DNA of 64,000 nucleotides, taken from NCBI GenBank assembly GCA_963770975.1, contig CAVYRM010000008.1, positions 79,858 through 143,857 on the forward strand, read 5' to 3'. The notes beneath the pieces were generated by a model. That model ran no database searches. It was not told the origin of the DNA and saw only the letters and a program-made list of their open reading frames with translations. A program made the translations under genes and the position numbers. Origin of the DNA: an uncultured delta proteobacterium. Its GTDB lineage: Bacteria > Desulfobacterota > Deferrimicrobia > Deferrimicrobiales > Deferrimicrobiaceae. Positions 1 to 37,226 of the stretch are shown piece by piece (positions within the stretch are counted from its first letter, which is position 1; each line of letters begins with the position of its first letter).

Positions 1-1765
1 CCCGTCACCACGGTTCGGGAGACATCCACCTCGACCCTCTACTGGAGGCCTGACCTGTTCCCCGACCTCCGGCTGCAATATTCCCGGGATCATCTGTACG
101 ACAAGGAGCGGTTGAGCCAGGACACCGTGACCGACCTGTACCAGGCCACGTCCAATTACAAGCCGACGGGCGCCTTGACCCTCTACTACCAGGGGACCCT
201 GCGTCAAACCGATTTGCGGCTCTCCGATACCACCACGAAGGAACTGACCAACAACGGGCGGGTGAACTATTCCAACAACTGGTGGCGCCGACGGATCACC
301 CTCGGTATGGATTACAACGTCACCAACCAGGTGCTGGAGACGGAAACCACCGGCAACGGCGAAGTGGAACTGCGGGTCTTCCCGTTCTCCGGGCTGTCGA
401 CGACGAGCGACACCCCGGAGAACGTCGCCCTCTTGCCGAACCCTTCCCTGATCGACGGGGATCTCACGGCGGGCACCGGAATCAACCTGGGGCTCCCGCC
501 GCCCGGGGGCGACGCGCGGTTGAGGAACATCGGGCTGGACTTCCTCGTGGCAACCGAAACCAACACCTTCTTCGTGTCGGTCGACCGGGACGTGGCGCAG
601 GTCGCCGACTCCTTCTCCTGGCGGATCTACACGAGCGACGACAACCAGAACTGGGTCCTTCGCCAGACCGTGTCCCCCGCGATCTACAGCCCCACGTTCA
701 ACCGGTTCGAAATCCGCATCGCGAACGTCAACGCCCGGTATGTGAAGGTCGTGACCGCCCCGCTTTCCCCGGTGGTCCCCTTCGCTTCCAGCTTCCCGAC
801 CATCCAGGTGACGGAGCTGCAGGCCGAGATCCGGCGTCCCGCCTCCGAAGTGGCCGGGAAACTGACGACGACTTCCCAGAACGGCACCCTGGATTTCCGC
901 ACGGTGCTGCTGGAGCCCGTCAACCTGACCTACGAATTCACCTACGTCTTCACGAAAAGGGACCCCGGGGATCTGCAGTATACGATGTCCAACGGGTTGT
1001 CGTTTTTCCGGCAGTTCAACAGGGTGTTTTCCGGAAGGGGAAGGGTGGCGTACGAAAACGGGGAGGAACAGGCGGGTCACCGCGATGCGATCGTGTATAC
1101 CGCATCGGTGTCGGCGGTCCCTTTCCAGACCCTGTACCAGTCCCTCACCCTCAGCGGGAAGGAAGAGACCGTCGCCGGGAAAAAGGACAGCAACGTATCG
1201 ATATTGTTGTATAATATCGCTAAGTTATACGAAGGGATCGACGCGAACCTCGGGGGCGGGCTCACTTTCCAGGAAGACGCCACGGGGAAGAAGACACGGA
1301 ACGCCCAGGTGAACGGGGGAGCGACGTTCGTGCCGAACCGGAAGGTGAACCTGACCCTCCTGTACAACGGGACCACCACCGACACGTCGGGGGGGGACCG
1401 ACCGGTGGAAAAAACGGATTATACCCGTGCCGGGGAGGCCGACCTGGCGATCACCCCGGTACAGACCGTGTACCTGTTCGGATCCTACCGGATCGAGAAG
1501 TCCACCACGACTCCGAGCCGGAACATCCTGAACTACAGCCTCAACTGGTCCCCGTTCCCGGACGGAACGCTGCACCTGACGTTCTACTACAACGAAACGA
1601 TCCGGTCGGATGAATCGAAGGAGAAGGTCGATCGTTCCCAACCTGCGGTGGTACTTCACCCAGAGGTCGTACCTGAACCTTTCCTATCAGAACCTGAAAT
1701 CCGAAACCCCCGCGCTGACGACCACCTCGAACGTGTACAGCGGAACGGTGCGGATTACCTTCTGA
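1..1765 (+). CDS. Outer-membrane beta-barrel protein, 5' partial, with an internal discoidin (F5/8 type C)-like domain. One frame change lies between about 1580 and 1640.
   Basis: Frame 1 is open from base 1 (PVTTVRETSTSTLYW...). It has repeated amphipathic strand-like segments. The middle segment NPSLIDGDLTAGTGINLG...FSWRIYTSDDNQNWVL...ARYVKVV looks discoidin-like. After about 1630 the sense continues in frame 2 as IVPNLRWYFTQRSYLNLSYQNLKSE...YSGTVRITF, ending in the terminal Phe typical of OMPs (stop 1763-1765). Confidence 0.5.
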
Positions 1766-1809
1766 AGGAGCGGAAAGAGGGGTGGCGATGTGATCGGAGG
1801 AATCGGAAG

Positions 1810-2391
1810 ATGAGGAAAAATACGACAGTACGCCTCGGGATGGTGATTCTTCTCATCCTGGTTTCCACCGGGTGCGCCACCACCTCCAAGGTCGTCTATC
1901 GGGATCCGAACATGGATTTCGGGGCGATCCAGACCGTTGCGGTCATGCCGTTCAACAACCTGACGAGGGAAAACATCGCCGGGGAAAGGGTCCGGGACGT
2001 CTTCATGACGATGTTGCAGGCGACCGGGGGCGTGTACGTGATCCCTCCCGGCGAGGTGGCGCGGGGGATCGCGCGGCTCGGCCTCGAGCGCCCTGCATCG
2101 CCCACGCCGGAGGAAGTGACCAAGTTCGCGAAGATCGTGACGACGGACGCCGTGTTCACCGGGACCGTCAGGGAGTACGGGGAGGTCCGGTCCGGAACCT
2201 CCACGGCGAACGTGGTCTCCGTGAGCCTGCAGATGATGGAGGCGCAGACGGGGAGGGTGGTGTGGAGCGCATCCTCCACGCAGGGCGGGGTCACGACTTC
2301 GGACCGCCTGTTCGGCGGGGGCGGGGAGCCGATGAACGCGACGACGCAGAAGGCGGTCGATGACCTCATCGATAAGCTTTTCGGGAAATAG
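1810..2391 (+). CDS. Lipoprotein of the TolB-N-terminal-like fold group (PelC / LpoB / DUF799-like).
   Basis: MRKNTTVRLGMVILLILVSTGC is a lipobox signal peptide. It is followed by IQTVAVMPFNNLTRE...VFTGTVREYGE...VSVSLQMMEAQTGRVVWS, the pattern typical of this lipoprotein family. The ORF track fuses it to the upstream OMP only because of read-through in frame 1. Confidence 0.6.
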   Translation: MRKNTTVRLGMVILLILVSTGCATTSKVVYRDPNMDFGAIQTVAVMPFNNLTRENIAGERVRDVFMTMLQATGGVYVIPPGEVARGIARLGLERPASPTPEEVTKFAKIVTTDAVFTGTVREYGEVRSGTSTANVVSVSLQMMEAQTGRVVWSASSTQGGVTTSDRLFGGGGEPMNATTQKAVDDLIDKLFGK

Positions 2392-3574
2392 ATATTTCCT
2401 CGCATCCGGATTTTTCGCCCTGGCGTTATCGATCGGGACCGCGACGGAGAGCGGGGGATCGGCGGAATACGCGGATCGATCCGTCCGCCGGCATGAATTC
2501 CCTGATCGCCGTGATGCCGGTGGAAAACCTCACCGGGATGCCCGTCGCGGTCCAGCGGGTGAGGAGATCGCTGGTCCAGGACCTGAAACGGAAAGGGCCT
2601 CAACATCCTGGGAGAGGATGCCTGGAGAAATTCCTGGAGAGGCACCGGATCCGGTATACCGGCGGACTGAACCGGGAACTCGGGGAGGCGCTGCGCGAGG
2701 AAACGGGGACGAACGCCGTCCTGTTCCCGACCCTCGAATTGTTCGACGATGCGGTCCCGCCGAAAACCGCCCTGGTCGCAACGGCTGATATCGACCCACG
2801 GGAACGCGGACATCCTGTGGATGGACAGCACGGCGTTGGCCGGAAACGACGCCCCGGGATTTCTGCTCCTGGGCCTGATCAACGATCCCGCCGTGCTGTG
2901 GGAAAAGGCAAAGAGGCAGGTGACGAAGTCCTTGCTCGGCGTACCTTTCCGGGAAACCGGCGCAGGACACGCAAAAGGTCGAAAAGAGATTCCTGCCGAA
3001 AAGTTTCCATGGCGTGCCTCCCAAGGTTCCGGCGGGCAAGGAAACGCTCTCCATCGCCGTCCTGCCGTTCCGGAACGAAAGCACCCGGAGAAACGCCGGG
3101 GAAATCATGGCGCTGCATTTCATCCGGGAACTCTCCAGGCACGGGAAATATCCGACGTGGTGGAACCCGGAGAGGTGCGGCAGGCGCTCCTGCGGTCGAG
3201 GACGATCATGGAGGGGGGGCTTTCCCTTCCACAGGCGGACATCCTGCACGCCGCCCTCGGAGTGGATCTCGTCCTCACCGGCATCGTGACGGAATACCAG
3301 GACAACATCGGCGGGATCGGAAAGCCCCAAGGTGGAGTTTTCCGCCCGGGTGTTCGACATGAAGACGCGGCAGATCGTGTGGACTTCCGCCAGTTACAAC
3401 GAGGGGGACGACGGGGTGTTCTTCTTCAACCTCGGAAAGGTCAATACGGCGCATCGGAATGGCGTCGGGGATGGTCCGTTCCTCGGTGCGAAAAATGGAA
3501 GCTGCCTTCCGGCCAAGCGCGGGACCATCTTGCGTCGGCAAATCGGTCCGATGTGCGGAAATAATAACGCTTGA
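2360..3574 (+). CDS. Two-domain lipoprotein made of two copies of the same PelC/LpoB/DUF799-like module. At least four frame changes; the C-terminus is uncertain.
   Basis: The signal-like N-terminus is RYFLASGFFALALSIGTA. Module 1 is IAVMPVENLTGMPV...NAVLFPTLELFDD...ILWMDSTALAG. Module 2 is LSIAVLPFRNESTRRNAGEIMALHFIRELS...LVLTGIVTEYQDN...MEFSARVFDMKTRQIVWTSASYNEGDD. The sense jumps between the ORFs at 2360, 2493, 2749, 3014 and 3332. Confidence 0.45.
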
Positions 3575-3599
3575 CCGGGCGAAGGGTGCACTATATACA
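3571..3599 (+). promoter_or_regulatory. Candidate sigma-70 promoter for the PPIase/cytochrome operon.
   Basis: TTGACC (3571-3576), a 17-nt spacer, then TATACA (3594-3599). It sits in the only AT-rich stretch between two genes. Confidence 0.3.
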
Positions 3600-3680
3600 G
3601 TATGCATATAAATAATGGTTCCTTTTATTCCGTGGGATCTCCTTTAAAACCGATTGGTTACGAAACATGAAAGGAACAGC

Positions 3681-5386
3681 ATGAGCGAAAGCCGCCTTGT
3701 ACGTTATCGCGTTGATCGTTGCATTCTCGCTCTTCCCTCCCCGTCGGATACGCATCTCCCGCCCGGGCGGATCTTCCCCTGGTGGGTGGCAAACCGGCGC
3801 TTGCCAGGATCAACGGGGAACCCCTCATGCTGGAGGAATTCGAGCGGGCGCTCGCCGGGATCCACGCGGGGATGGCGGACAATACCCAGCGATCCATGCC
3901 GCACCCTTCCCAATTGCTGGATCGGCTGATCAACGCCAAGCTGGTTCTCCAGGAAGCGCGCAATATCGGGCTCGACGAATTGCCGGAAGTCCAAAGCGCG
4001 GAGAAGGCCTTCGAAGAGGATACGCTTCGGGGGATGCTGTACGGCTACCACGTGCGGAATATCCTGAAACCCGATCCGAAAGAGGTGGAAAAACGGTACC
4101 GGGAAGCGGTGAAAGAGGTGAAGGTGATCTCCGTTCTCTTCGACAAGGAAGAGGACGCGAAACGGCTGGAGGCCGAGTCAAGGCGGGGGGGAAATTCGAG
4201 GTGCTGGCGAAAAAAAGGATCGATTTCCGGAGAGGCGAAGGGAAGCGTCGAAGGGCAATACCTGAAATTCGATTCCTTGAGCCCCGAGGTCGCAAGGCGG
4301 TACTTCCCATGAAGAAGGGGGAAGTCAGCCCGTTGATCCGGATCGGGAAACAGTTCTCCCTGCTGAAGCTGGAGGCCATCCGGTATCCGAAGGACAACGC
4401 CGCCCGGGAACAGGCCGAAAAAGAGGCGTTGCAGGCGAAAAGGGTCGTCGCTCTGAAGGCGTATACCGACGGGCTGCGGAAGAAGTACGTCAAGGTCGAC
4501 CGGAAGCTTTTCGACACGATCGACTACGAAGCGGCGGAGCCCGGGTTCGAGAAACTCCGGGAGGATCGACGCGTCGTGGCCGACCGTGAAGGGGGAAACG
4601 CCGGTCACCGTGGGGGACCTGACGGTGGCCCTCGAGAAGAAGTTCTTCCACGGCGCGGAACGGGCCGCCGGGGAGAAGAAGATCAACCGGAAGAAGGACC
4701 AGGTGCTCGAGGAGATCCTGAACAAGCGGGTCACCATCAAGGAAGCGAAAATCCAGAAGCTCGACCGCACGGAATATTTCAAGGTGAAGACGGCGGAAAA
4801 CCGGAACGGCGTCCTGTTCGGGGCGTTCGTGCAGAAGGTGATCGTCCCGGACGTCAAGGTCGGCGAGGAAGAGTTGAAGTCTTATTACCAGGCGCACATC
4901 GGCGACTACACGTTTCCGGAAATGGTGCGGATCGACAGCCTGGTGTTTTCCGACCAGGGAGAACGCGGAAGACGGCGATCGGTGAAGTTGCGCGGAGGGG
5001 CGGATTTCCAGTGGCTCCGGGCGAACGCGGACGGCCAGGTCGACCCGGCGAAGGGGGAAAACCTGCTGGAGTTCGGCGGGCAGCTGCTGGACACGACCAC
5101 CCTGCCCGAGGGAGTCCGGAAGGCGATCTCCGGGGCGGCGGCGGGAGATTACCGTCTATACGCGGATCCGGGCGACGCATACTACGTTCTGGTGCTCCTG
5201 GAACGGATTCCTTCCCGGCCCATCCCCCTGGAATCGGTGAAGGGGGAAATGGAAAAGAAGGTCTTTTCCGAAAAGCTCGAGCGTGTGTTGCGGGACTGGG
5301 AAGAGAAGCTCCGGAAAGCTTCGGACGTGAAAATCTACGCCACGGGCGAGAAACTGGACCGGATCGTCAATCCCGGGGCCAGGTAA
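3681..5386 (+). CDS. Periplasmic SurA/PpiD-like chaperone with a parvulin (PpiC-type) PPIase domain. At least four frame changes.
   Basis: The signal peptide is YVIALIVAFSLF. Then ALARINGEPLMLEEFERAL...LLDRLINAKLVLQEARNIG, a parvulin-like core KAGGKFEVLAKK...GEVSPLIRIGKQFSLLKLE, and a second half ending GDYRLYADPGDAYYVLVLLERIPSRPIPLESVKGEMEKKV. The shifts sit at a G-run near 4180, an A-run near 4210, near 4295 and near 4580. Confidence 0.6.
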
Positions 5387-5413
5387 CTTTTAACCATCGA
5401 TTCGGGAGACCGT

Positions 5414-7412
5414 ATGCCGACCATCCCCTTGAAGCGCACTTTCGTGTTCATTCGGCGTGATCCTCGCTCTTGCGGGAGCGGCCTTCCTCGCTTCCCGCGG
5501 ATCTTCCTGGGCCGAGCCGCGCAAGTTTGAACGGAAGGGATGCCTCGATTGCCACAAGAAGTTTTCGGAAAAATACCTTTCCCTGAAGGCGCTGCACCCC
5601 GGCATGAAGGAGGGGAAGTGCGAGGATTGCCATCTCCGGCACGGCATCGTTCCCAAGCTCCTCCTGAAAAAAGACGGGAACGAACTGTGCTACTCCTGCC
5701 ATGCCAGGGAGAAGATCGGGCTGAACCAGCCGAACGTGCACACGGTCCTGAAGACGGGGAAGTGCACCTCCTGCCATAACCCGCACGGCTCCCAGGGGAG
5801 CCACCTGCTGAAGGCGGAAGGGCCGGAGGCGTGCTACCAGTGCCACAAGAAAGAGGCGTATCAGCGGAAGGTGGTCCACGCGGTTCTCCAGAAGGACGGG
5901 TGCCGGGTATGCCACAACCCCCACAGTTCCACCGAGCCCGACCTGCTCGTCAAGGCGAAAACGCCCCTTGTGCCTCTCCTGCCACGATCCCGGCAAGGGG
6001 TCCTTCAGGAAAGCGCACGGGAATTACCCCGTGGAATCCAAATCGTGCACCGGGTGCCACGACCCGCACTCCTCCTCACAGAAGATGCTCCTGAAGGCGA
6101 GCGCGCACAATCCCGTGCTGGAAAAAAGCTGCGACGCGTGCCACCCGTCGCCCGACTCCAAGACGCCCTTCGCGGCGTCGGAGAAGGGAGGGAAGCTCTG
6201 CTACCAGTGCCACGACGAAGCCAAGCTGAAGGCGGGGGGACGGTTCTCCACAACCCGTTCGGAGGCGGGGAATGCCTCTCCTGCCACGATCCTCATGCAT
6301 CGCCGAACCCGAATCTCCTGGCAAGGAAGGGGAACGGACTCTGCCTCGAATGCCACGGGGAGCAGGGAAAGCCGGTGGCGAAGGGGCACGCGGCGGTGAC
6401 GAAGGGGAAAGGGTGTCTCTCCTGCCACAAGCCGCATGCCGCCGTGAACAAGGGGCTCCTCGTCGCGAAAGACGCGGAACTCTGCTACACCTGCCATGCG
6501 AAGGTGAAGGCGAGCCTGAAATCGAAAACGCAGCATGTACCGTTTTCCAAGGGGGAATGCTCCTCCTGCCACAACCCCCACGGGTCCGATCTCCCGGGGA
6601 TCTTGAAGGACCGGGAGGACAAGGTCTGCTACGCCTGCCACGCGGACGCGGAATCGGGTTTCGTCAAGAAAACCATCCACAAGCCGGTCCTCTCGGGGAA
6701 CTGCGGCGCGTGCCACGCGGCGCACGGTTCGGACGAGGGGAAGCTTCTGAAGAAAGCGGGCGCGTCCCTGTGCGCCGATTGCCACAAGGACCTGATGAAG
6801 GAAGTGACCGGCGGCGTCCGCCACGACCCGTTCAAGGGGGGCGAGTGCCTGACGTGCCATAACGCCCACGCGTCCGATTTCGGGGGAATGCTCGTCGCGA
6901 AGCAGGACAAGGTCTGCTTCGAGTGCCACTCCGAACTGAAGGACGGGTTGAAAGGCGGAAAGAGCCGCCATGCCCCGGTTTCGGGAGGGGAGTGCACGAA
7001 GTGCCACAGCCCCCACCAGTCGAAGCTGAACAAGCTTCTGCTGGCGCAGGGACCGGACCTCTGCCTCACCTGCCACAAGGATCTCAAGGAGAAGATGCAG
7101 AAGGAGAAGACGCACTCGCCCGCGGGGCGCGATTGCCTGCGGTGCCACGGCCCCCATTTCACGGCGCAGGGGAACCTCCTGGCCAAGCCCGTGCAGGCGC
7201 TATGCTCCGAATGCCACAACGTGAAGGACGCGTCCTTCGGCAAGGCGCACTTCAACATCGACCCGGCGGTGATGAACTGCATCAGCTGCCACACGCCCCA
7301 CGCATCGAAGGATCCGAAATTCTTCAAGGAAAAAGTGCACGCACCGTTTGCCGGGCGGTCCTGCGAGGATTGCCACCTACCAGCACCAGCGATGACAGGG
7401 GATAAAACATGA
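5414..7412 (+). CDS. 26-heme c-type cytochrome built from tandem doubled-CXXCH units. Two compensating frame changes lie near 5960 and 6240, and possibly one in the signal peptide.
   Basis: I counted 26 CxxCH motifs: 6 in frame A (5457-5965), 4 in the 5968 frame (CLSCH, CTGCH, CDACH, CYQCH) and 16 back in frame A. The recurring unit is LCxxCH...H.P...G.CxxCH.PH.S....LL. ATG 5414 with a GGGAG ribosome-binding site gives the signal peptide. The stop overlaps the next start (ATGA at 7409-7412). Confidence 0.8.
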
Positions 7413-8682
7413 CGCTTCGAACCAAGACCGCTCTGGTCCTCCTCGCGATCGTTTCCACGATGGCGGTTTCCTTGTCGCACGCCCAGGACAAGTTCCGCCT
7501 GAAGCCCGGGGCGAAGGGGAAGGTCTGCCTTACCTGCCACGAGTCGTTCAAGGAGAAGCTGAAGCTGCCGTTCGTCCACACGCCGGTCAAGGCGGGGGAC
7601 TGTTCGGACTGCCACAACCCGCACACCTCCTCCTACGGGAAGCTCCTCGCGGAGAACGTGAACCGGATCTGCTTCTCGTGCCACGGCGGGATCGTGCCGG
7701 CGAAGGCGCGAAGCGCCCACAAGGTGGTCGCGGAAGGGAACTGCGTGAAGTGCCACGATCCGCACGCCGCGAAAAACAGGAACAACCTGCTTGCCGCCGG
7801 GAACGAGCTCTGTTTCGGCTGCCACCAGCGCATCGCCAAGGAGGTCGCGGGGAACAAGTTCAAGCACAGCCCCGTGGAGAAAGGGTGCCTCAACTGCCAC
7901 ACTCCGCACGGTTCCGCGAAAACGCTTTCCCTGCTGAAAACCGACGTCCCGGGCATCTGCGTGGCGTGCCACAAGCCGGACGCCCCCGCGTTCGGGAAGG
8001 CGCACATGGGATACCCGGTGGCGAAGTCGAACTGCACCTCCTGCCACGACCCCCACGGTCGGCAACAGCCGGGGCATTCTCTGGGGGAAGCCGCACCAGC
8101 CCGTCGCGAACAAGATGTGCAACCAGTGCCACCTGGATCCGTCCTCCCCGGACGCGCTGAAAACCCGCAAGGCGGGGTACGAGCTCTGCCGCGGCTGCCA
8201 CAATGCCAAGATGAACGAAATCCTGGGCAGGAAGCGGATTCACTGGCCCGTGGTGGACAAGAGCGTCGTGCCAGAACTGCCACCGTCCGCACGCCTCCCG
8301 GGAGAACGCCCTGCTGAAGGAGCCGCAGCTTCCGCTCTGCGGCGAGTGCCACCAGGACACCATCGAGCGGTTGGAAAAATCCGCGGTGAAGCACAAGCCG
8401 GCCCAGGAGGGGAACTGCACGAAGTGCCACATGCCGCACTCCTCGAACAACGTCCTCCTGCTCGATAACACGAGCCCGATCAATCTGTGCGGCACCTGCC
8501 ACGACTGGCAGAAGCATTCCTCCCATCCGATCGGCGAGAAGGTGATCGACAAGCGGAACCGGAACCTCACCATGGACTGCAGCAGCTGCCACGCCCCGCA
8601 CGGGTCCGATCAGAAGCGGTTCACCTGGTACGACGTCAAGATGGACCTTTGCGTGCAATGCCACGAACAATACAAGAGGTGA
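7409..8682 (+). CDS. 16-heme c-type cytochrome of the doubled-CXXCH type. About three frame changes.
   Basis: The signal peptide is MTLRTKTALVLLAIVSTMAVSLSHA. There are 16 CxxCH motifs across the ORFs at 7409, 8115 and 8371, plus a short segment CQNCHRPHASRENALLKEPQLPLCGECH read near 8270-8340. It ends in ...CVQCHEQYKR. Confidence 0.75.
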
Positions 8683-8686
8683 CCCG

Positions 8687-9592
8687 ATGCGCCGCGTCCT
8701 GAAATATGTCCTCCTCGCTTCGATGAGCCTTGCGGCCGCCGGCGGCTCCCATGCGGCCGAGCAGGTCAAGTTCAAGCAGATGGCCCCGATCTACGTGGAC
8801 GGGAAAGGGGCGGGGATCCGGCAGCCGGAAGGCGTCGCCTGCCGGGGGAACGCCCTTGTGGTGGCCGACACGGGGAACGGCCGGCTCCTGCGGTACACGA
8901 TCGCCGGGGAAACATGGACGCCCGGCGGGGAAATCGTCCTGCCCCAGCTGACGTCCCCGATTCGCGTGGACGTCAATTCGAAGGGGGAGATCTTCGCGCT
9001 GGACGGGACACTCCCGCAAGATCGTGCGGATCGCCCCGTCCGGCGACTTCCTGGGGTACGTCGCGCCTGCGGGGGAGGTACAGGGGGCCATCGTGCCGCG
9101 AAGCCTCCGGTTCGACGGGCAGGACAACTTGTACCTGCTCGACGTCCTCTCCGCCCGGATCCTCGTGTTGGACCCGTCCGGAAAGGTTCAGCGGGAGATT
9201 CCCTTTCCGAAGGGATACGGCTTTCTCTCGGACCTCGCCGTGGATGCGGGCGGGAACGTCTATCTGCTGGACAGCGTCCGGAAGAGGGTGCTACAAGGTG
9301 GCGAAAAACTCTGCCGAAGCGGCTCCGCTGACGGGAAGTCTGAAGGAAGAAGCGTATTTCCCCACTCTCCATCGCCACGGACAAACAGGGAACGATCTTC
9401 CTGGTCGACCAGAACGGCAGCGGGGTCGTCATCCTCGGGCCGGACGGCTCTTTCCGCGGGCGTCGCTTGAGCATGGGATGGAAGGAAGGGTTCCTGAGAT
9501 ACCCGGCGCAGATGTGCATCACGGAGAACGGCACCGCGTTCATCGCGGACCGGGGGAACAACCGGGTCGACGGCTTCCTGATCACGGAATAA
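8687..9592 (+). CDS. Secreted NHL-repeat beta-propeller protein. About three frame changes.
   Basis: The signal peptide is MRRVLKYVLLASMSLAAAGGSHA. The NHL-like repeats are GIRQPEGVACRGNALVVADTGNGRLLRY, IRVDVNSKGEIFALDG, LRFDGQDNLYLLDVLSARILVLD, LAVDAGGNVYLLDSV, DKQGTIFLVDQNGSGVVILG and ITENGTAFIADRGNNRVDGF. The stop is at 9590-9592. Confidence 0.65.
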
Positions 9593-9611
9593 CCGCGGAA
9601 GCGCGCTACCC

Positions 9612-12600
9612 GTGATCCCGTTCCTGTACCTGCTGTTCTTCCTGTCGGGCGCCGCCGCGTTGGCCTATCAGGTGGTGTGGGTCCGCTCCCTGCAACTCGT
9701 CTTCGGCGGTTCCCATTTTGCGGTAACGGCAGTCCTCTCCGTGTTCATGGCGGGCCTTGCGCTGGGAAGCCATCTCCTCGGGAAACGTGTCGACACTCTC
9801 CGAAGACCGCTGCGGCTATACGGCATCCTCGAGATCGGGATCGCCGTCTTCGCCGTTCTCTTTCTTCTCCTGACGAAATTTTATCCTTACCTTTACGTTC
9901 CCCTGTGCCCGTGTGGCGGAAGAAAACACCCTGTACCTGTCGTTTCTCCGCGTCATGTTCGCCGTGGTCGCGATGATCGTCCCCACCACGCTGATGGGGG
10001 GGACCCTGCCCGTATTGACGAAGTTCGCTTCGGAGCATTCCCGGGAGGCCGGGGAGCACGTTTCCTTCCTGTACGGGTTCAATACCCTGGGAGCCGTGGC
10101 CGGCACGCTGCTGGCCGGATTCGTCCTGCTGCCGCGATTTTCCGTCATCGGCACATCCGCCATCGCGATCGCCACGAACGCTTTTATCGGTCTCGCATCC
10201 ATCGCCCTTGCGCAAAGACGGGTTTTTTCGGAGGTTGAGGGTGCGGGATCTCCCCGGATCACCGGCTCGTCGCGAGGGAAAGCAACCAGGATAACCGCGC
10301 CAGAGAGTCCGCGGTTCCATCCGTTTCCGTCGAGCTGGTCCTCTGGGGGATCGGAATCAGCGGTTTCTGCGCCTTGGGGTACGAGGTTCTCTGGACCCGG
10401 GTCCTTTCGATGGTCGTCGGCGCCAGCGTATACAGTTTCACCGTCATGCTGGTGTCCTTTCTCACGGGAATCGCGCTCGGGAGCAAGGCGTTCGGCTTTT
10501 TCATAAGGAGGTTCCCGGGAGCGTGCGGGACGCCGGGAAGGGCGGTTCTGTTTTTCGGGGCCGTGCAGGTGCTCATCGGCCTCACCGCCCTGGTCGTTAC
10601 GTATTTCATCCGGGACCTTCCTTCCCACGCCATCCGGATCCAGAACTACCTGCTTGGAACCGGCATCAGCGAGTTCGAGGTCCGGCAGGGGGCGAACTTC
10701 GCGGTCGCCTTCTCCCACATGTTCATCCCGGCATTCTTCATGGGGGTGGCGTTTCCGCTGGCCGGAAAGATCCGTGTCGATGGCCGGAGGTCGGCCGGAG
10801 AGGCCATCGGGGAGGTTTCGGCGTATAACACGATCGGCGCGATCCTGGGTGCCGCCTTCAGCGGGTTCTTTTTGATCTACCTGTTCGGCATCGAGCGGTC
10901 GCTGCAATTCCTTGCCCTGATCAATGTGGGGGCAGGGATCCTGATCGCCGCCAGCGCGTGGAAGCGCCCGGTGGTGACGTGGGGGATCGCGGGGGCCACG
11001 GCCGCCGTCATCGCGATGCTGGCGCTTCACCCGGGTCTTTGGAGGATGTGGGACCTGAAATATTTCGCCATCTACCGCAACAACACGCGGGAAGCATTCA
11101 ACACGGCCTTCAACATGAAGGATGCGATGGAAAACACCGACGTGCTTTATTACGCCGAAGGCGTGCAGGCGACGGTGAGCGCGATCAAGGTGAAGGGCGG
11201 CTCCCAGGCGTTCATCACCAACGGGCGAATCGAGGCCTCGAACCAGAAGGAAGGGATCCAGTGCCAATACACCCTGGGCCACCTTCCCATGCTTCTGAAC
11301 AAAAACCCGAGGAAAGTGTTCGTGCTGGGCACGGGAAGCGGGATGACCCTCGGGGCGACTTCCGTGCACCCGAGCGTGGAAGAGATCGTCCTTGCGGAGA
11401 TCGAGCCGAAAGTCCTGGGAGTGGCGAGGACGTTTTCAAGGTACAACCACGATGTGCTCGACAATCCGAAGCTGCGGATCGTCTTCAACGACGGGCGAAA
11501 TTACCTGATGACCACGAAAAAGAAGTTCGACGTCATCACGGCGGACCCGATCCATCCCTGGTTCAGCGGCGCGGGCTATCTCTATACCGCGGAGTATTTC
11601 CGGCTGGCCGCGGAGCATCTCAACCCCGGCGGGATCGCCTGCCAGTGGCTTCCGATCTACGAATTGAGCGTGGACGACCTGAAATGCGTCGTGAAAACAT
11701 TCTCGGAGAATTTTCGATACACCATGCTCTGGCTGACCCGGAACGATGCGGAACTTGTGGGGAGCAACGATCCGATCGTCATCGACGAGGAGGAACTGGA
11801 ACGGCGTATCGCGGCGCCGGGAGTCTTCGACGATCTGAAGAGCGTCGACATGGGATCGGCGGATGATTTCCTCGCCTATTTCGTCATGGGAACGAAGGGA
11901 ATGAAAGAGTTCGGAGCGGGGGGAGTGATCAATACCGACGACAACCTGCATCTCGAATTTTCCGCCCCGATGTCCATGGATGTTCCCACCCAGGGGAGAG
12001 AACGCGCGACGCCCTGTACCGGTACCGGGAATCCCTGCTGCCTTACCTGCTTCCTGCAACGGGGATTGCCGCACGGAACGCCCAGATCGAACGGACCGAA
12101 CGGAATTTCCGGGCAGGCGAGAACATACGCCCTGGCGCATGTCCTGTTCCTGAGCGGTGGATCTGGAACCCCTGAATTTGCCAGAGATCATGGGAGAACT
12201 GGAACGCGACGTATCCGGAATATGCCCCCGTACAAGTTCCTGAAGGGCGAGGTTCGGGATCTGGTGGCAATGACCCCGACACTGATCCGTGCGGAGAAAT
12301 TTCATGATGCTGAACGATTCGGGCAGCAGCGTGGTCGTGGAAATCTCCGCGGTGAAGGTGCGCATCGGGGAGGAGAGGACGGCGGTGGTCTTCGTGGACA
12401 ATCGGACCCGGACGATATACGGACAGAAGTATATCGATGCGAAAAAGGAAGATCTTGGAGGAGGGAGTCCGGCGATATGCAGAGGATGTCTTGTCGAGTC
12501 TGAAGAGTACTTACCGGAGAGAAGCAGCCCTCGCGGTGCGTGATGGGAGGAAATATCCCTCTTGCGGAACACCACATTACGGAAAATCAAGTGAAATCAT

Positions 12601-12625
12601 TGCGTCGATGACAGGAGAAGCCTGA
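9612..12625 (+). CDS. Fused polytopic-membrane / spermidine-synthase-like (SAM-methyltransferase fold) protein. At least four frame changes; the C-terminus is uncertain (12503-12625).
   Basis: The N-terminus LYLLFFLSGAAALAYQVVWVRSLQLVFGGS and later FCALGYEVLWTRVLSMVVGAS are duplicated membrane modules. The SpeE-like core is VFVLGTGSGMTLGATSVHPSVEEIVLAEIEP...FDVITADPIHPWFSGAGYLYTAEYF. Confidence 0.65.
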
Positions 12626-13060
12626 TGTGCGGTTGAGGGGATGATCGTTTATCGGCAGAGGATCTTGAAGAGCTCCCCCTGGGAGATTCGCGCACGACGC
12701 CGCGTCCAATCCGAAGGGGTGAAGGTGTGGGTCACCGGCTTGTTCGGTCGTTCCGACGATGACCTCGACGTCCCGGACGATCCTGTTGGTGCAGTCGAAT
12801 TCCTCCAGGGATTTCCTCGGGAAGTGGTCCTTGTCGAACCCCATGATCCAGACCCGGAACATCCTCGGTCCGGAGGGAATGACGCTGTCCGGATCGTAGA
12901 GGATCCTTTCCTCGCCGGTTTTTCCCGCGATCGCCTTCCATCGCTCGTTTCCCGCATCCGCGATTCCCGCCGCCATGGTCAATGCCGAAAAGAGGAGGCA
13001 AAGAAAAAACGTTGAGGGTTTTTTCAGGGAAGAATGATGGATCGACATATCGATAATCAT
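12587..13060 (-). CDS. Small secreted hypothetical protein, possibly surface-adhesin-E-like. The C-terminus is probably frameshifted.
   Basis: The signal peptide is KKPSTFFLCLLFSALTMAAGIADA. Then ERILYDPDSVIPSGPRMFRVWIMGFD...EEFDCTNRIVRDVEVIV, a pattern seen in adhesin-E-type domains. The function is a guess. Confidence 0.3.
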   Translation of the reverse strand: MIIDMSIHHSSLKKPSTFFLCLLFSALTMAAGIADAGNERWKAIAGKTGEERILYDPDSVIPSGPRMFRVWIMGFDKDHFPRKSLEEFDCTNRIVRDVEVIVGTTEQAGDPHLHPFGLDAASCANLPGGALQDPLPINDHPLNRTSGFSCHRRNDFT

Positions 13061-14845
13061 ACCATCGCACCGCCGCGTTCTCTACGCGGGTTCATTCCGG
13101 CCGCCCTGTTCCTTCTGATCGGAGTGGCCATCTATTCCAATACGCTGCATTCCCCCTTTGTATTCGATGACGGACCGTCCATCACCAGAAACCCGACGAT
13201 CAAAAACCTCCAGAATTTTTACGGGAATTCAACCGGTTACGATAAGTACCCGAACAGGTTCGTCGGGTACGCCACGTTTGCGCTGAATTACCGCTTCGGC
13301 GCGTTCGATCCGTCCGGGTATCACGTCGTGAACCTGGCGATACACATCGGAAACGCTTTGCTGGTCTATTTCATCGTGCTCATCACGTTCCGCACGCCGT
13401 ACATGGAAAAATCCTTTTCGGAAAAGGCAGCGCGCGGCAGTGCGCTCACCGCCGGATTGCTATTTCTCGTCCATCCCGTGCAAACCGAGGCGGTGACGTT
13501 CATCGTTCAAAGGCTGACATCGCTTGCCACGGCGTTTTTCCTTCTTTCCCTGTTTTATTACGCAAAGGCGCGGCTCCTGTCGTACGGCGGGCCGAACCCT
13601 TCGAAAAAGAAATACCTGCCGTGTTACCTCGTTTCGTTCCTTTTTTGCCTCCTGTCGATGAAAACGAAGGAGATCTCTTTCACCCTGCCCGTTATCTTAT
13701 TGGTTTATGAAGGTTTTTTCTTCGATGGCCCGTTCCGGAAGCGAGCTTTCCTCGTGTTTCCGTTCCTGCTGTCGATGCTGGTCATCCCCCTTTCGCTCGT
13801 CAACGTTCATGCGCCGATCGGCAAAGTCCTCACGGACATCGGCACGGCCACCCGGGTGCAAACGGACCTGTCGCGCGGGGACTATTTCCTCACCGAACTG
13901 AGCGTGATCGTCACCTACGTTCGACTGCTGTTTCTCCCGATCCACCAGAACCTGGACTACGATTACCCGATATACCGTACTCTTCTCCAGCCCAGGGTGA
14001 TTCTCTGCGCGGCGTTCCTGGCGTTCCTCCTGGGGACGGCGCTCCGGTTATACCTTCGATCCAGGAAAAACGGATCGGCGACGCTCCGGGTGATCTCCTT
14101 CGGCATGATCTGGTTCTTCGTCACCCTGGCGGTCGAGTCCTCCCTGGTTCCGATCGTGGATGTCATCTTCGAGCACAGGATCTACCTCCCTTCCGTGGGG
14201 GCCTTCCTTTCCCTGGCGGCGGCCGCCTCCATGATTCCCGGGGGATGGAAAAGGAAAGCGTGGACGGCGGCGCTGATACTGATCGTCGCGGGACTTTCCG
14301 CAGGCACGTATACAAGGAACATGATCTGGGAAGATGACCTCATCCTCTGGAGCGACAACGTAAAAAAGTCCCCCGCCAAGGCAAGACCTCATTACAACCT
14401 GGGGAATTCCTATTTCATGCGGCGTGCGACCGACAAGGCGATCAGGGAATTCCAGGAGGCGATCCGCCTGGATCCGGGCTATGCCGATGCATACCTGAAC
14501 CTGGGGGTGGCGTATGCTTCCACAGGCGCCGATGAAAAGGCCATGACGGCCTTGAACGAGGCAACCCGGCTGAACCCCGCCGACCCGGAATCCCATTACA
14601 ACCTGGGGCTGCTGTACGCCAACAAGGGATCGGACCGCCTTGCCGTCGAACATTACCAAAGGGCGATCTCGCTGCAGCCGGAATCCGTGAACGCCCGCAA
14701 CAACCTGGGGATCCTGTTGGCGGCATCGGGCCGCATCGACGAGGCCATCGACCAGTTCCGGCAGGGACTCCGGTACGTTCCGGGAGACGAAGAACTACGA
14801 AGGAACCTGGAAAATGCCTATCGACTGAAATCCCGTTCGAAATAG
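13034..14845 (+). CDS. Polytopic membrane protein with C-terminal TPR repeats (TMTC/PMT-like glycosyltransferase-type architecture).
   Basis: An intact 603-aa ORF. It has the N-terminal motif NTLHSPFVFDDGPSITRNPTIKNL, many hydrophobic helices, and then the TPR repeats HYNLGNSYF...AYLNLGVAYAS...HYNLGLLYAN...RNNLGILLAA. Confidence 0.65.
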   Translation: MMDRHIDNHTIAPPRSLRGFIPAALFLLIGVAIYSNTLHSPFVFDDGPSITRNPTIKNLQNFYGNSTGYDKYPNRFVGYATFALNYRFGAFDPSGYHVVNLAIHIGNALLVYFIVLITFRTPYMEKSFSEKAARGSALTAGLLFLVHPVQTEAVTFIVQRLTSLATAFFLLSLFYYAKARLLSYGGPNPSKKKYLPCYLVSFLFCLLSMKTKEISFTLPVILLVYEGFFFDGPFRKRAFLVFPFLLSMLVIPLSLVNVHAPIGKVLTDIGTATRVQTDLSRGDYFLTELSVIVTYVRLLFLPIHQNLDYDYPIYRTLLQPRVILCAAFLAFLLGTALRLYLRSRKNGSATLRVISFGMIWFFVTLAVESSLVPIVDVIFEHRIYLPSVGAFLSLAAAASMIPGGWKRKAWTAALILIVAGLSAGTYTRNMIWEDDLILWSDNVKKSPAKARPHYNLGNSYFMRRATDKAIREFQEAIRLDPGYADAYLNLGVAYASTGADEKAMTALNEATRLNPADPESHYNLGLLYANKGSDRLAVEHYQRAISLQPESVNARNNLGILLAASGRIDEAIDQFRQGLRYVPGDEELRRNLENAYRLKSRSK

Positions 14846-14857
14846 CCCGGGTCGATA

Positions 14858-15181
14858 TTACTTCCTGTTTTCGAGCACGTATATGTAAAGCTCCCTGCAC
14901 ATTTGCAGTCGCCGGAGGTATACCTTCCGGGTCGGTTCCTCCTCCGCCTCGATTTGCGGCTTCAGGGCATCGCACCGCGCGATCAAATCCTTGAGCTCCT
15001 CCGCGGAAAGCGTCATCGCGACGTCGGTTTTCGAGCAGACCGCCTCGTACTCCGGCTTCCACCGATCCTCGGCCTGCGATACCGAGGGTCCGGACAAGGG
15101 GTGTCCGGCCGGCAGGGGACTCCAGGAGAGAAGGATGACCGTGGCGACGGCGCAAAGGATGCCGGATGCGAATCGTCTCAC
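14858..15181 (-). CDS. Small secreted Cys-containing hypothetical protein, translationally coupled to the upstream cytochrome.
   Basis: The GTG start at 15181 overlaps the TGA stop of the 15178-15924 gene (GTGA). The signal-like N-terminus is RRFASGILCAVATVILLS. The mature part has 3 Cys and a charged helical tail. Confidence 0.4.
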   Translation of the reverse strand: MRRFASGILCAVATVILLSWSPLPAGHPLSGPSVSQAEDRWKPEYEAVCSKTDVAMTLSAEELKDLIARCDALKPQIEAEEEPTRKVYLRRLQMCRELYIYVLENRK

Positions 15182-15924
15182 GGCCACTCCTTCATGGCGG
15201 GGTGGCACCCCCGGCAGTCGCTCATCGGAAACGCCACCGTCATGTGGCAGACGCCGCAGAACTCCCCCGCCAGGTTCATCCTCATCTCGAAATGCTTCGT
15301 GGTCTTCTTCCGGATGTTGAAGATATCCGGATGGCAACTGCTGCACTCCAGCCACGCGGTGTGGCTCTTGTGGGGGAAGATCGCGGGGGGAACGCGTTCC
15401 CACTCCGCCTCGAGCATCAGCGTCTTTTCGTAGACGATCCCCGCCGGCGGTTTCACCCTCAGGAACCGGGCGGGACGGATCGCGTTCTCCTCCATCGCCC
15501 GCCCCCAGTCGATGCGGTTCCCCGAGCGTCTTCGCGGCAGCGAGGCCAGCTCGGGGAAATTCTCTTTTCCATATCCCCGGTCGCCGTTGTGGCATTTATC
15601 GCAGCTCCCCTTGTCATGTCCGAAGGCGATCTTCCCGTCGTGGCACGCACCGCAATATTTTCCCGCCCGGTTCTCCGCTTCGGTGATCGGGGTGACATTC
15701 ACCTTGAACCCGAATTCCAGCTCGGAGTGGCAGACCCTGCACGTGTATTTTCTCCGGTGGCTCCAGTGGGAGAACGTGACGGGCTTCACCTTGTTCTTCG
15801 TGGAGGTCCGGTCGACGAGCAGGTTCCCGAACTCCTCCGGCGGGGGAGGAGGGGGGAAATACCAGTTCGCCTCCGCTGCCACCGCAAATAGAAGGAACGC
15901 CAGCGCCCCGAGATAACCGGCCAT
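15178..15924 (-). CDS. Hexaheme cytochrome made of two c7-type triheme domains.
   Basis: An intact ORF with an N-terminal anchor and 6 CxxCH motifs (CRVCH, CGACH, CDKCH, CSSCH, CGVCH, CRGCH). They are arranged as F.H..H....C..CH...CG.CH.G.AF...C..CH, twice. Confidence 0.8.
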   Translation of the reverse strand: MAGYLGALAFLLFAVAAEANWYFPPPPPPEEFGNLLVDRTSTKNKVKPVTFSHWSHRRKYTCRVCHSELEFGFKVNVTPITEAENRAGKYCGACHDGKIAFGHDKGSCDKCHNGDRGYGKENFPELASLPRRRSGNRIDWGRAMEENAIRPARFLRVKPPAGIVYEKTLMLEAEWERVPPAIFPHKSHTAWLECSSCHPDIFNIRKKTTKHFEMRMNLAGEFCGVCHMTVAFPMSDCRGCHPAMKEWP

Positions 15925-15927
15925 GAA

Positions 15928-16728
15928 TCATCGCACCGGCTTCGAGTGGCATCTCTGGCAATCGGTGGTCGGGAACGCCACGGACATGTGACACGCCCCG
16001 CAATACTTCCCCTCGAAGATCTCGGACATCGAGTACCGGGTCATCCCCTTCCTGATTCCGGCGAAGATCTCCGGGTGGCACAGTTCGCATCCGTTCCAGA
16101 CGGTGTGCTTCCTGTGGGAGAAGATGATTTCCGGCATGGTCTCGACCTTCGCCGCGATGGCGAAGTCCTTCTGGACCGCCAGGGCGGGTCGTTTGATGGA
16201 GACCCCCTCGATATGGTCCAGCGGCTTGATGAGCCCCCGCTCTTCCGCCTTCTCCCAGTCGACCCCGTTTCCGAACCGCTCCTTCGGGAGCCTCTCGATG
16301 AACGCGGCGAAGTTGTAGTCCCGCTCCACGCTCTCCCCGTCGGCATGGCACCGGTTGCATCGCCTCTGGTCATCACGGGTGTATTTCTTCGCACACGCCT
16401 CGAATATTTTCCGGTCCCCGTGGGTCATCTTCCCGTTGTGACAGGTGCCGCAGTAGTACCCCTTCATGTTGTCCGACGCCTTGATCCCCGTCGCGTTGGC
16501 TTTCATCGCGAATCCGATATCCACGTGGCACAGGCGGCAGGTGTACTTGGCCCGATGGAGCCAGTGGTCGAACCGGACCGGGGAAAGGCCCGCGCCGGAC
16601 GAGAAATTCCCGATGACGACCCCCCCGTATTCATACGGCAACGGGCGCCGTTTCTTTGTCCCGGTCTGGGCGAAGGCGAAGCTGGCGAAGACCGGTACGA
16701 GAAGAAGGATTATGAACCGTTTTTTCAT
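15928..16728 (-). CDS. Hexaheme cytochrome made of two c7-type triheme domains; a paralog of 15178-15924.
   Basis: It starts at MKKRFIILLLVPVFASFAFA (ATG 16728, AGGAGG upstream). The 6 CxxCH motifs are CRLCH, CGTCH, CNRCH, CELCH, CGACH and CQRCH. The domain order matches its neighbour. Confidence 0.8.
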   Translation of the reverse strand: MKKRFIILLLVPVFASFAFAQTGTKKRRPLPYEYGGVVIGNFSSGAGLSPVRFDHWLHRAKYTCRLCHVDIGFAMKANATGIKASDNMKGYYCGTCHNGKMTHGDRKIFEACAKKYTRDDQRRCNRCHADGESVERDYNFAAFIERLPKERFGNGVDWEKAEERGLIKPLDHIEGVSIKRPALAVQKDFAIAAKVETMPEIIFSHRKHTVWNGCELCHPEIFAGIRKGMTRYSMSEIFEGKYCGACHMSVAFPTTDCQRCHSKPVR

Positions 16729-16901
16729 GCTGCTGCCCCTCCTGCCGGATATCCCTCCGGTAATCATAACAATGTCATTTCTGTTAATGAGAAAAGAATG
16801 CAGGATGCAGCCCGCATTCCGTCCCGTGGAGGGCAGGGATTCGCCTCGTGATTCTGTTATAGTAGGAAAATTATTTAACTGCCCCTTTGGGAGGTTTACC
16901 G

Positions 16902-24260: not shown

Positions 24261-24342
24261 GGAGTAGAATATAGATGTGATCTGACATGCCTCGCGGCGG
24301 GTAACCCTGAATGCCGGGCGCCATCCGGCAGGAAGGGGGGCT

Positions 24343-24798
24343 GTGATGGTCCGGTTGCTTTCCGGAGTCGTCGTCGCCCTTCTGGTCCTCTCGCTCCCAT
24401 GCGGGGCCGGGGAACCGGCCGGAATCGCGAACCCGCATGAAAACCCTTCTTCGTGCCCTTCGTGCCACACGGAAGTACCCACGTCGGAGGATGTCTCGGC
24501 AGGGCGCTATTCCCTGCGGGGGGATTCCATCGACGACACCTGCTGCATCTGCCATGTCGCCAAGTGCAAGCCGATCGAGGGGAAGAAAAACCATATTTCG
24601 AACATCAACCGGTGGAACCGCGAGGAGATGAGGGCTCCCGCCACCCTTCCTCTTTACGGCGGGTACATAACCTGCCTCACGTGCCATTACCGGGAGAAGC
24701 CGGAAGGGGTGGATTACAAACGGCTCCGGATCGTGAAGCTCAAAGGGAACAAGGTCGATTGGGCGGGCCTTTGCAGGGACTGTCATCCCCACCATTGA
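24343..24798 (+). CDS. Small secreted tetraheme c-type cytochrome.
   Basis: The signal peptide is MMVRLLSGVVVALLVLSLPCGA. The 4 CxxCH motifs are CPSCH, CCICH, CLTCH and CRDCH. The motif spacing matches the 36696-37223 protein. Confidence 0.75.
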   Translation: MMVRLLSGVVVALLVLSLPCGAGEPAGIANPHENPSSCPSCHTEVPTSEDVSAGRYSLRGDSIDDTCCICHVAKCKPIEGKKNHISNINRWNREEMRAPATLPLYGGYITCLTCHYREKPEGVDYKRLRIVKLKGNKVDWAGLCRDCHPHH

Positions 24799-37223: not shown

Positions 37224-37226
37224 GGC

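Follow-up and report, generated by a model that had tools for sequence, protein, structure and literature searches.

Multiheme cytochrome genes and a SpeE-like membrane protein of an uncultured groundwater bacterium as the probable distal part of an osc-type cluster

The window analysed here comprises positions 1-64,000 of the stretch presented above, which belongs to contig CAVYRM010000008.1 of an uncultured delta proteobacterium (GCA_963770975.1). At 3681-12625 its + strand carries a string of five genes for a peptidyl-prolyl isomerase (PPIase), a 26-heme cytochrome, a 16-heme cytochrome, an NHL-repeat propeller, and a membrane protein with a spermidine-synthase-like domain (hereafter, the SpeE-like protein). 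Taken with three further cluster genes at 1-3565, this string is probably the distal two-thirds (window positions 1-12625) of an osc-type (omcS-companion) cluster that extends past the left window edge; we put the probability of this reading at about 0.8. Both the four-gene core, from PPIase to propeller, and the wider osc cluster have already been described, and the association of the SpeE-like protein with multiheme cytochromes, which the first-pass annotation did not recognise, is therefore not a novelty. The added value of the present analysis is that the SpeE-like protein stays linked to osc genes in several phyla although gene order has been rearranged repeatedly; its active site looks intact but non-canonical, and the domain that holds it is predicted to be periplasmic.

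The name osc refers to the omcS companion operon of Geobacter sulfurreducens, GSU2504-GSU2493 (Shen et al. 2025, Cell Chem Biol 32:239, as presented in PMC13194489 and bioRxiv 10.1101/2025.11.06.686851). According to the summary of that study in PMC13194489, OscH acts in folding, OscE/F/G in secretion, and OscD in morphology; the same source equates GSU2501, GSU2495, and GSU2494 with oscC, oscI, and oscJ, respectively. GSU2495 is a 26-heme protein (bioRxiv 10.1101/2025.11.06.686851). From the consecutive locus tags we infer that OscB, D, E, F, G, and H are GSU2502, 2500, 2499, 2498, 2497, and 2496, respectively. The letters E, F, and G used below for the barrel and the two lipoproteins, and K for the NHL propeller, likewise follow gene order and locus tags.

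Gene content and coordinates

The first-pass annotation described five same-strand genes encoding 42 hemes, a beta-propeller, and a polytopic membrane protein with a SpeE-type fold, and the sequence bears this description out. Examined base by base, the gene of the OscH-like periplasmic PPIase of SurA/PpiD type (3681-5386, + strand, ~560 aa) extends from ATG 3681 to TAA 5384-5386. It is followed on the same strand by the OscI-like 26-heme cytochrome (5414-7412, ~659 aa, starting with ATG 5414), the OscJ-like 16-heme cytochrome (7409-8682, 423 aa, ATG 7409 and TGA 8680-8682), the OscK-like NHL-repeat beta-propeller with its signal peptide (8687-9592, 300 aa, ATG 8687 and TAA 9590-9592), and the SpeE-like protein (9612-12625, ~1003 aa, GTG 9612 and TGA 12623-12625), which is composed of an MFS-like membrane domain, a SpeE fold, and a C-terminal helical domain. 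The successive spacers are 27 nt, an ATGA overlap, 4 nt, and 19 nt. None of the five genes (0/5) is present as an uninterrupted open reading frame (ORF), and frames were repaired by frameshift-aware protein-to-DNA alignment against the intact orthologues of loci L083 (GCA_054603675.1) and L037, with the L002 locus (GCA_014860205.1) also aligned.

The heme count agrees with the annotation as well: 26 CxxCH motifs are found in 5541-7362 and 16 in 7526-8650 (three frames), 42 in total and all on the + strand, and the opposite strand of the cytochrome region contains zero such motifs. Pfam and NCBIfam profiles were run on the ORF pieces of the broken genes. The PPIase matches SurA_N_2/3 and Rotamase_2 (E=1.8e-14) on its two pieces. 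Both cytochromes match Paired_CXXCH_1 (E=4e-134 for the 26-heme protein) and are made of DmsE/MtrA-type decaheme units by profile, the 26-heme protein scoring 284.8 bits with the corresponding model (cut-off 192); their signal peptides end in ...SSWA/EP and ...SHA/QD, respectively. The propeller matches NHL profiles and aligns full length to the 300-aa L083 orthologue. As for the SpeE-like protein, it matches Spermine_synth (E=1.4e-23), its largest intact piece reaches 99.7 bits with NF037959, "fused MFS/spermidine synthase" (cut-off 40), a name that NCBI also gives to its relatives, and it is 73% identical to its L037 orthologue in frameshift-aware alignment.

Three more cluster genes lie to the left, on the + strand. 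The first (1-1762) encodes an OscE-like outer-membrane beta-barrel of ~710-730 aa (family Y729), which was identified by tblastn and frameshift-aware alignment to the orthologues of L083 and of L007 (Geobacter sp. H2geo); the N-terminal ~140 aa fall left of the window, and the protein ends in ...VRITF. AlphaFold2 (AF2) models cited here are those of orthologues or homologues and not of the window proteins themselves. The model of the barrel orthologue, P0121 (pLDDT 87.6), is all-beta, with ~30 long antiparallel strands and an inserted F5/8-type-C-like jelly roll, and Foldseek returns only generic large barrels, namely TonB-dependent receptors, FimD/PapC ushers, and MtrB, with TM-scores of 0.25-0.34. 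This ~730-aa all-beta family is read as a putative outer-membrane channel.

The second gene (1810-2391) is intact and encodes an OscF-like lipoprotein of LpoB/GNA1162 type (193 aa); a GGAGGA site precedes its ATG at 1810, its stop is TAG 2389-2391, its N-terminus ...LILVSTGC resembles a lipobox, and its orthologue matches Pfam LpoB (E=5.5e-10) and the GNA1162-like family (1.6e-8). The third (2493-3565, ~355 aa, ~9 frameshifts) encodes an OscG-like lipoprotein with two LpoB/CsgG-like halves, whose LpoB/GNA1162 matches are faint and whose L007 orthologue gives a weak CsgG match (E=5e-4, 19.8 bits versus a cut-off of 20.8). OscG-like lipoproteins differ in length among loci. Those of L083 (12935-15607), L002 (1205-3967), and L084 (GCA_029980365.1; 12755-15358) have an N-terminal extension of ~520 aa, 867-920 aa in total, which is PKD/Ig-rich with faint PKD/Big/Y_Y_Y matches; the window, where the region 2391-2493 holds no extension, and most distant loci have the core only (~355-390 aa).

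The string is operon-like in that no + strand terminator-like site inside 3681-12625 exceeds chance and the same order recurs in L002, L083, and L084. Its coordinates as annotated, however, cover only a part of the unit, given the three genes at 1-3565. The scan for promoters and terminators returned nothing above shuffled expectation and is uninformative beyond the absence of a strong internal terminator; the annotation had named promoter or terminator evidence of an independently transcribed SpeE-like gene as a refutation. Metatranscriptome contigs of related sediment organisms cover the PPIase through the SpeE-like gene at comparable depth and span the 26-heme/16-heme and 16-heme/NHL junctions. 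No such contig crosses the unconserved 19-nt NHL/SpeE spacer; these contigs come from distant relatives, and both flanking genes are covered.

Frame disruptions

Repairing 3681-12625 takes ~30 frame changes: 9 in the PPIase gene, 4 in the 26-heme gene (5453, 5964, 6229, and ~7385), 2 in the 16-heme gene (8060 and 8265), 3 in the NHL gene (9011, 9291, and 9367), and 12 in the SpeE-like gene (9906, 10315, 11994, 12010, 12122, 12183, 12208, 12227, 12300, 12451, 12560, and 12592). A further ~10 fall within 1-3565, including one near 1624 in the barrel gene and 9 insertions between 2592 and 3546 in the OscG-like gene. About 30 disruptions within 9 kb could suggest that the cluster consists of pseudogenes decaying in the source organism, yet such decay is very improbable. 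The disruptions are nearly all single inserted bases, and differences from the intact L002 locus are mostly bases inserted in the window; protein identity to intact orthologues stays at 73-90% across each break, and 42 of the 42 CxxCH motifs are kept. Neighbouring genes throughout show the same type of break, and a second error-prone assembly, L001, is broken at other places. Pseudogenisation was rejected on the evidence of related populations: short-read contigs of four independent groundwater metagenomes (three studies) are without the extra base at the positions tested, 4581, 4955, 4975, 4983, 5453, 7385, 8066, 8268, and 9906, which makes consensus errors of an error-prone assembly the most likely source of the breaks.

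Within window positions 1-13000 there is one single-base insertion per ~300-400 bp and nearly all genes are broken, which probably holds window-wide. An unpolished assembly of long-read type seems to be the origin of the window, and ORF lists badly under-call its genes. The ATGA overlap at 7409 reported by the first-pass annotation is literally present in the sequence, but it is created by the base inserted near 7385. Once this base is removed, TGA 7393-7395 closes the 26-heme gene (...CHLPAQR*), and the 13-nt spacer before the 16-heme gene contains an AGGGGA ribosome-binding site; L083 and L002 show the same arrangement.

Conservation of gene order

The nearest named relatives of the source organism, which is uncultured and inhabits groundwater, are "Desulfobacteria bacterium" and Candidatus Deferrimicrobium metagenome-assembled genomes (MAGs). 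Synteny in related genomes, a check proposed by the first-pass annotation, was found: L002, L083, and L084 carry intact genes in the same order, with a PPIase of 533-566 aa, a 26-heme cytochrome of 658-659 aa, a 16-heme cytochrome of 423 aa, an NHL propeller of 300 aa, a SpeE-like protein of 1000 aa, and an NHL-to-SpeE gap of 20 nt. L083 and L084 reach further upstream and show the probable layout of the missing part, namely genes for a PhnD-like protein, a histidine kinase, a sigma-54 regulator, a PilZ regulator, an OmcS-like cytochrome, an NHL-like protein, a second OmcS-like cytochrome, and a YncE propeller, and then the barrel, LpoB, the OscG-like lipoprotein, PPIase, 26-heme, 16-heme, NHL, and SpeE-like genes. 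Their barrels are 80-83% identical to that of the window, with the two OmcS-like genes 2-6 kb upstream. In L083-L086 a YncE/YVTN propeller of 469-484 aa stands directly upstream of the barrel; this putative counterpart of OscD is absent from the window, whose left edge falls within the barrel gene. The hexaheme family is that of OmcS, the L044 copy matching PDB 6EF8 over its full length (E=1.8e-115).

For distant synteny, an alignment of 22 SpeE-like homologues was searched against one genome per species, which gave 80 loci, each with flanks of at most 10 kb, and neighbour families were defined by tblastn and all-vs-all clustering of the ORFs from 81 loci. The families conserved around SpeE-like genes are an NHL-like protein (~320 aa), the hexaheme cytochrome (~420 aa), the YncE/YVTN propeller (~475 aa), the barrel (~730 aa), the LpoB-like lipoprotein (~195 aa), the double LpoB/CsgG-like lipoprotein (~380 aa), the PPIase, the 26-heme and 16-heme cytochromes, and the NHL propeller, each osc family being recovered in 20-33 loci. 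At least 2 osc families lie within 10 kb of the SpeE-like gene in 39 of the 80 loci; among the 34 loci with 8 kb or more on both sides, the number is 21.

Osc-linked loci belong to several phyla and show at least 5 gene orders; their source labels are Nitrospirota, Geobacteraceae, other Deltaproteobacteria/Thermodesulfobacteriota, Acidobacteriota, Rokubacteria, Schekmanbacteria, and Anaeromyxobacteraceae. The SpeE-like gene follows NHL in the window type (also L002, L083, L084, and L037), lies between LpoB and the OscG-like gene in Acidobacteriota MAG loci, precedes the hexaheme gene in Geobacter sp. H2geo and others, or is divergent or convergent to the rest. In a neighbour-joining tree of the SpeE-like family, osc-linked members are spread through most of it. 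A linkage that outlasts such rearrangement across lineages argues for a shared function. Thus, the link noted by the first-pass annotation is real and conserved beyond close relatives, yet it is not obligatory, and it is no unrecognised novelty, the core having been published in PMC5539420 and the wider cluster corresponding to the osc operon with GSU2502.

Two observations on unusual loci can be added. In L049, a Deltaproteobacteria MAG, the 16-heme and 26-heme proteins read as one 1061-aa ORF with 42 CxxCH motifs (11115-14300, - strand), which reflects a natural fusion or else the loss of a stop codon. In L085 (20103-22190, - strand) and L086 (20260-22175, - strand), two more distant loci anchored on the barrel and not on the SpeE-like protein, convergent giant genes stand where the window has the SpeE-like gene. 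They encode a 1692-aa beta-helix/PKD adhesin-like protein in one case and a 2889-aa GH94 glycoside phosphorylase-like protein in the other.

The four core genes, together with the barrel and lipoprotein genes, might instead encode a self-contained trans-envelope electron conduit, porin-cytochrome-like or serving syntrophic electron uptake. It would work without OmcS filaments, and the SpeE-like protein would be its partner in the inner membrane. The core does occur in SEEP-SRB1 and other lineages for which interspecies electron uptake has been proposed (PMC5539420), and L051, L052, L040, and L075 show no barrel, LpoB, or OmcS-like genes in the stretch covered although they have the core and the SpeE-like gene. 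The DmsE/MtrA-type composition of both cytochromes and the fact that MtrB gives the top TM-score for the barrel also fit a conduit. That score, however, is weak (0.32-0.34) and no better in kind than those of ushers and TonB-dependent receptors. Moreover, neither the 26-heme nor the 16-heme cytochrome has a lipobox, CxxCH and profile scans detect no MtrC-like lipoprotein cytochrome in window positions 1-15000, and, where the flanks are long enough, an OmcS-like gene and OscD-G-like genes usually adjoin the core. We consider such a conduit a minority possibility and retain the osc-type assignment.

The SpeE-like membrane protein

The AF2 model of the SpeE-like homologue P0011 (pLDDT 89.5, pTM 0.88) has 6+7 = 13 transmembrane (TM) helices, followed by a beta-rich N-domain, a Rossmann domain, and a helical tail of ~200 aa. 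The two 6-helix halves of the membrane domain are mutually homologous, as in MFS transporters, and some members of the family match MFS_1. According to Foldseek, the best matches of the SpeE-fold domain are aminopropyltransferases (TM-scores of 0.69-0.75 to 1UIR, 6BQ2, and 1JQ3, with 270-285 aligned columns), and the modelled domain is a complete two-domain aminopropyltransferase fold including the N-terminal beta domain.

Retention of the residues that bind S-adenosylmethionine (SAM) or decarboxylated SAM (dcSAM), which the annotation had proposed to check, turns out to be partial. Compared with Thermotoga maritima SpeE, the protein keeps the ribose Glu (AEIE, end of beta2), the adenine-loop Asp (NDG), the catalytic Asp (end of beta4), and, beyond the gate loop, the L-Y-T-x-E-Y-F segment. 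In SpeE, the aminopropyl amine of dcSAM is recognised by the Asp of the GGGDG motif; here GTGSG replaces this motif, and G-x-G-S-G-M-T is invariant among the 22 homologues. The DSTDPT gate reads DPIHPW, with the first Asp kept and the second, putrescine-binding one replaced by His, and Cys stands in place of the substrate-site Tyr (T. maritima Tyr76). In amino-methyltransferases, (D/N)PP(Y/F/W) occupies the place corresponding to the DPxHPW motif. The GTGSG, DPIHP, and Cys replacements and the active-site-like residues are invariant among the 22 homologues, which argues that the site is under selection, yet not as the site of a spermidine synthase. SpeE equivalog models score far under their cut-offs (TIGR00417 96.2 versus 249.55, PRK00811 91.3 versus 260, and PRK03612 104 versus 472).

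As for topology, mean Lys+Arg values across the 22 homologues are 19.3 in loops 2, 4, 6, 8, 10, and 12 versus 8.1 in loops 1, 3, 5, 7, 9, and 11. This positive-inside pattern would place the N-terminus and the loop after TM12 in the cytoplasm, so that TM13 carries the SpeE-fold domain, predicted to face the periplasm, across the membrane. If the domain were cytoplasmic instead, it could be a functional polyamine aminopropyltransferase, with the fused MFS part exporting what it makes, and the neighbourhood would then reflect a need for polyamines, e.g., in matrix or filament bundling, with no physical role in the cytochrome system. The complete fold with its N-terminal beta domain, the retained ribose-binding Glu, adenine-binding Asp, and catalytic Asp, and the MFS_1 matches of some family members speak for such an enzyme. 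Against it stand the loss of the dcSAM-amine Asp, the family-wide replacement of the putrescine-binding Asp and the substrate-site Tyr, the low equivalog scores, and the 13 helices with their charge pattern, and we regard it as improbable.

Catalysis in the periplasm is itself doubtful. Unlikely, too, is the specific proposal that the SpeE-like protein is a periplasm-facing alkyl-transferase (aminopropyl or methyl) that receives its donor via its own MFS part and, as the osc machine's inner-membrane part, covalently modifies amines on filament subunits or on the 26/16-heme wires. If true, it would be the first SAM/dcSAM-type transferase acting in the periplasm and a new post-translational step of cytochrome nanowire assembly.

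Proposed role of the cluster

The osc cluster, to which we assign the window genes, would mature OmcS-family hexaheme filaments, export them, and provide their wiring to the cell. The SurA-type PPIase (OscH-like) would fold or chaperone the OmcS-type cytochrome in the periplasm, and the barrel (OscE-like) with the two LpoB/CsgG-like lipoproteins (OscF/G-like) would form the export channel. The propeller OscD would shape the filament; these folding, export, and shaping roles are taken from the literature. The abstract of the study by Shen and colleagues is said to give roles only for OscH, OscEFG, and OscD. The 26-heme and 16-heme MtrA-like cytochromes (OscI/J-like) and the NHL propeller (OscK-like) would be periplasmic partners and plausibly provide a periplasm-spanning electron path to the filament base. 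Left of the window, OmcS-like genes, a second NHL-like gene, a YncE-type propeller, and a sigma-54 two-component system would be expected, judging from the 80-83%-identical relatives.

The SpeE-like protein is a candidate inner-membrane component, because no other member of the conserved set is a polytopic protein of the inner membrane. The MFS-like bundle of 12 helices and the 13th helix would put the SpeE fold and the helical tail in the periplasm, where the protein may either alkylate an amine on a periplasmic substrate, with the donor passed through the MFS part, or dock the assembly line to the inner membrane as a scaffold. That it is functionally integrated in the osc system in one way or another is rather likely. 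The source bacterium is a likely producer of OmcS-type conductive cytochrome filaments, which helps to read extracellular electron transfer (EET) potential in metagenomes, and GSU2502 becomes a candidate for the missing inner-membrane step in Geobacter nanowire assembly.

Several points weigh against this picture. No OmcS-like gene is present in the window, and its presence upstream rests on relatives only. L085 and L086 carry the whole osc cluster with no SpeE-like gene within 10 kb, and about half of the SpeE-anchored loci are without osc genes in the flanks covered (up to 10 kb per side). The periplasmic placement of the SpeE-fold domain derives solely from the positive-inside pattern, and no periplasmic enzyme is known to use SAM or dcSAM, so that periplasmic catalysis would be unprecedented. 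The proposed homology between the window protein and GSU2502 derives from annotation and position. Finally, several cultured species did not express their homologues of the 26/16-heme operon while respiring metals (PMC5539420).

Surroundings of the cluster

The gene following the SpeE-like one on the + strand (13034-14845) is intact and encodes a 603-aa polytopic membrane protein with C-terminal TPR repeats. The first-pass annotation took this next gene for a TMTC/PMT-like glycosyltransferase-type one and therefore held modification of a surface structure to be conceivable. Sequence searches with its membrane domain (residues 1-439) return nothing from Pfam at E<=1 or from the PDB at E<=10, only TPR families being detected in the protein, and the TMTC/PMT reading (PMT/PMT_2/DUF1736-type) has no support at the sequence level. 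A small ORF of at most 157 aa with a signal-peptide-like N-terminus intervenes on the opposite strand (12587-13060, - strand), between the SpeE-like and TPR genes. This ORF is kept in L001 (67%), where a gene is called at the equivalent place, and weakly beside the SpeE-like genes of L026 and L028. TPR protein homologues are found near SpeE-like genes in 14 of the 80 loci, including some without osc genes, which may make the SpeE-like protein, and not the cytochromes, its partner. The guanine-cytosine fraction dips to 0.556 in 12001-14000, compared with 0.60-0.69 elsewhere, a dip that takes in the small ORF on the opposite strand and the beginning of the TPR gene.

Further multiheme genes are present. 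Two adjacent ORFs at 15181-17115 (- strand) have 6+6 CxxCH motifs, their L001 equivalents matching Cytochrome_C7/CIII in a GSU1996-like dodecaheme arrangement, and a 12-heme ORF recurs a few kb from the SpeE-like genes of L015, L017, L027, and L080. The window totals 105 CxxCH motifs, with multiheme fragments at 24286-24795, 36699-37226 (- strand), 43734-44081, 46178-47902, 48833-49672, 56355-58900, and 61716-63027, several of which are split between frames by similar indels. As for regulators, a histidine kinase and a sigma-54 response regulator at 31977-34549 (+ strand), ~20 kb downstream of the cluster, are homologous to the osc-flanking pair of the relatives (42% identity to F17), and a second sigma-54 regulator is located at 53134-54532 (+ strand).

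Comparison with known systems

An operon of PPIase, 26-heme cytochrome, 16-heme cytochrome, and six-bladed propeller was described in SEEP-SRB1, Geobacter, Anaeromyxobacter, and Desulfurivibrio by Skennerton et al. (2017, PMC5539420), who gave it no known function, found no porin, and proposed interspecies electron uptake. It corresponds to window positions 3681-9592, with signal peptides, no TM helices, and all genes on one strand. PMC5539420 does not mention the SpeE-like, barrel, or LpoB-like genes, which are contiguous with the core in the window, or OmcS.

Among other systems, Uet of Candidatus Tenderia electrophaga (bioRxiv 10.1101/2022.05.06.490989) resembles the window in its PPIase UetB, NHL propellers UetH/I, doubled-CXXCH wire UetJ, and beta-barrel UetC, and the 21-27-heme periplasmic cytochromes of PCC3 (PMC5566968, PMC9900912) are of sufficient length to span the periplasm. 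Heme numbers, however, differ in Uet and in PCC3/MtrCAB, and neither has an OmcS-family subunit. Uet in addition has cupredoxin and triheme c7 proteins, and the paper describing it names no SpeE-like protein, the word "spermidine" occurring there 0 times. Compared with the PCC/MtrCAB type, the window shares MtrA/DmsE-type units, but its barrel is only weakly MtrB-like and its first 15,000 positions hold no counterpart of MtrC. A 2026 preprint on EET in peat (10.64898/2026.05.27.727921) was rejected as a match, its clusters being different, with 8-13 hemes.

SpeE (EC 2.5.1.16; PDB 1INL/1JQ3, 1UIR, and 6BQ2) shares with the SpeE-like protein the N-terminal beta domain and the Rossmann domain. 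The SpeE-like protein differs by its fusion to 13 TM helices, its predicted periplasmic location, the extra C-terminal helical domain of ~200 aa, and the presence of GTGSG for GGGDG, DPIHP for DSxDP, and Cys for the substrate-site Tyr.

The closest counterpart is the Geobacter osc operon. It differs from the window in the position of the SpeE-like gene, which stands at the 3' end after NHL in the window, L002, L083, L084, and L037 and in the 5' part in Geobacter; in the NHL-like gene (F16) and the linked sigma-54 two-component system that relatives of the window add; and in the organism, here an uncultured groundwater bacterium. GSU2502 itself is not among the 120 matches listed for the SpeE-like query of Geobacter sp. 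H2geo, and the literature search returned no match for OscB together with OmcS. The likeness is extensive, nevertheless. Families for a barrel, two lipoproteins, a PPIase, the 26-heme and 16-heme proteins, and an NHL protein recur in the window in the relative order that they have in Geobacter, and close relatives of the window have an OmcS-like hexaheme and a YncE-type propeller upstream. In Geobacter the eight-gene block GSU2500-2493 is located downstream of every GSU2501-like hexaheme, those in the genomes of H2geo and L1geo (L007 and L008) included (bioRxiv 10.1101/2025.11.06.686851). The Geobacter operon also includes GSU2502, annotated as "spermidine synthase", which lies between omcT and GSU2501 (PMC10599522, PMC13194489, and bioRxiv 10.1101/2025.11.06.686851) and is down-regulated along with omcS, omcT, and GSU2501 (PMC10599522). 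In L007 the SpeE-like gene is directly upstream of the GSU2501-like hexaheme, i.e., in the position of GSU2502, and by annotation and this position the SpeE-like protein of the window would be the equivalent of GSU2502.

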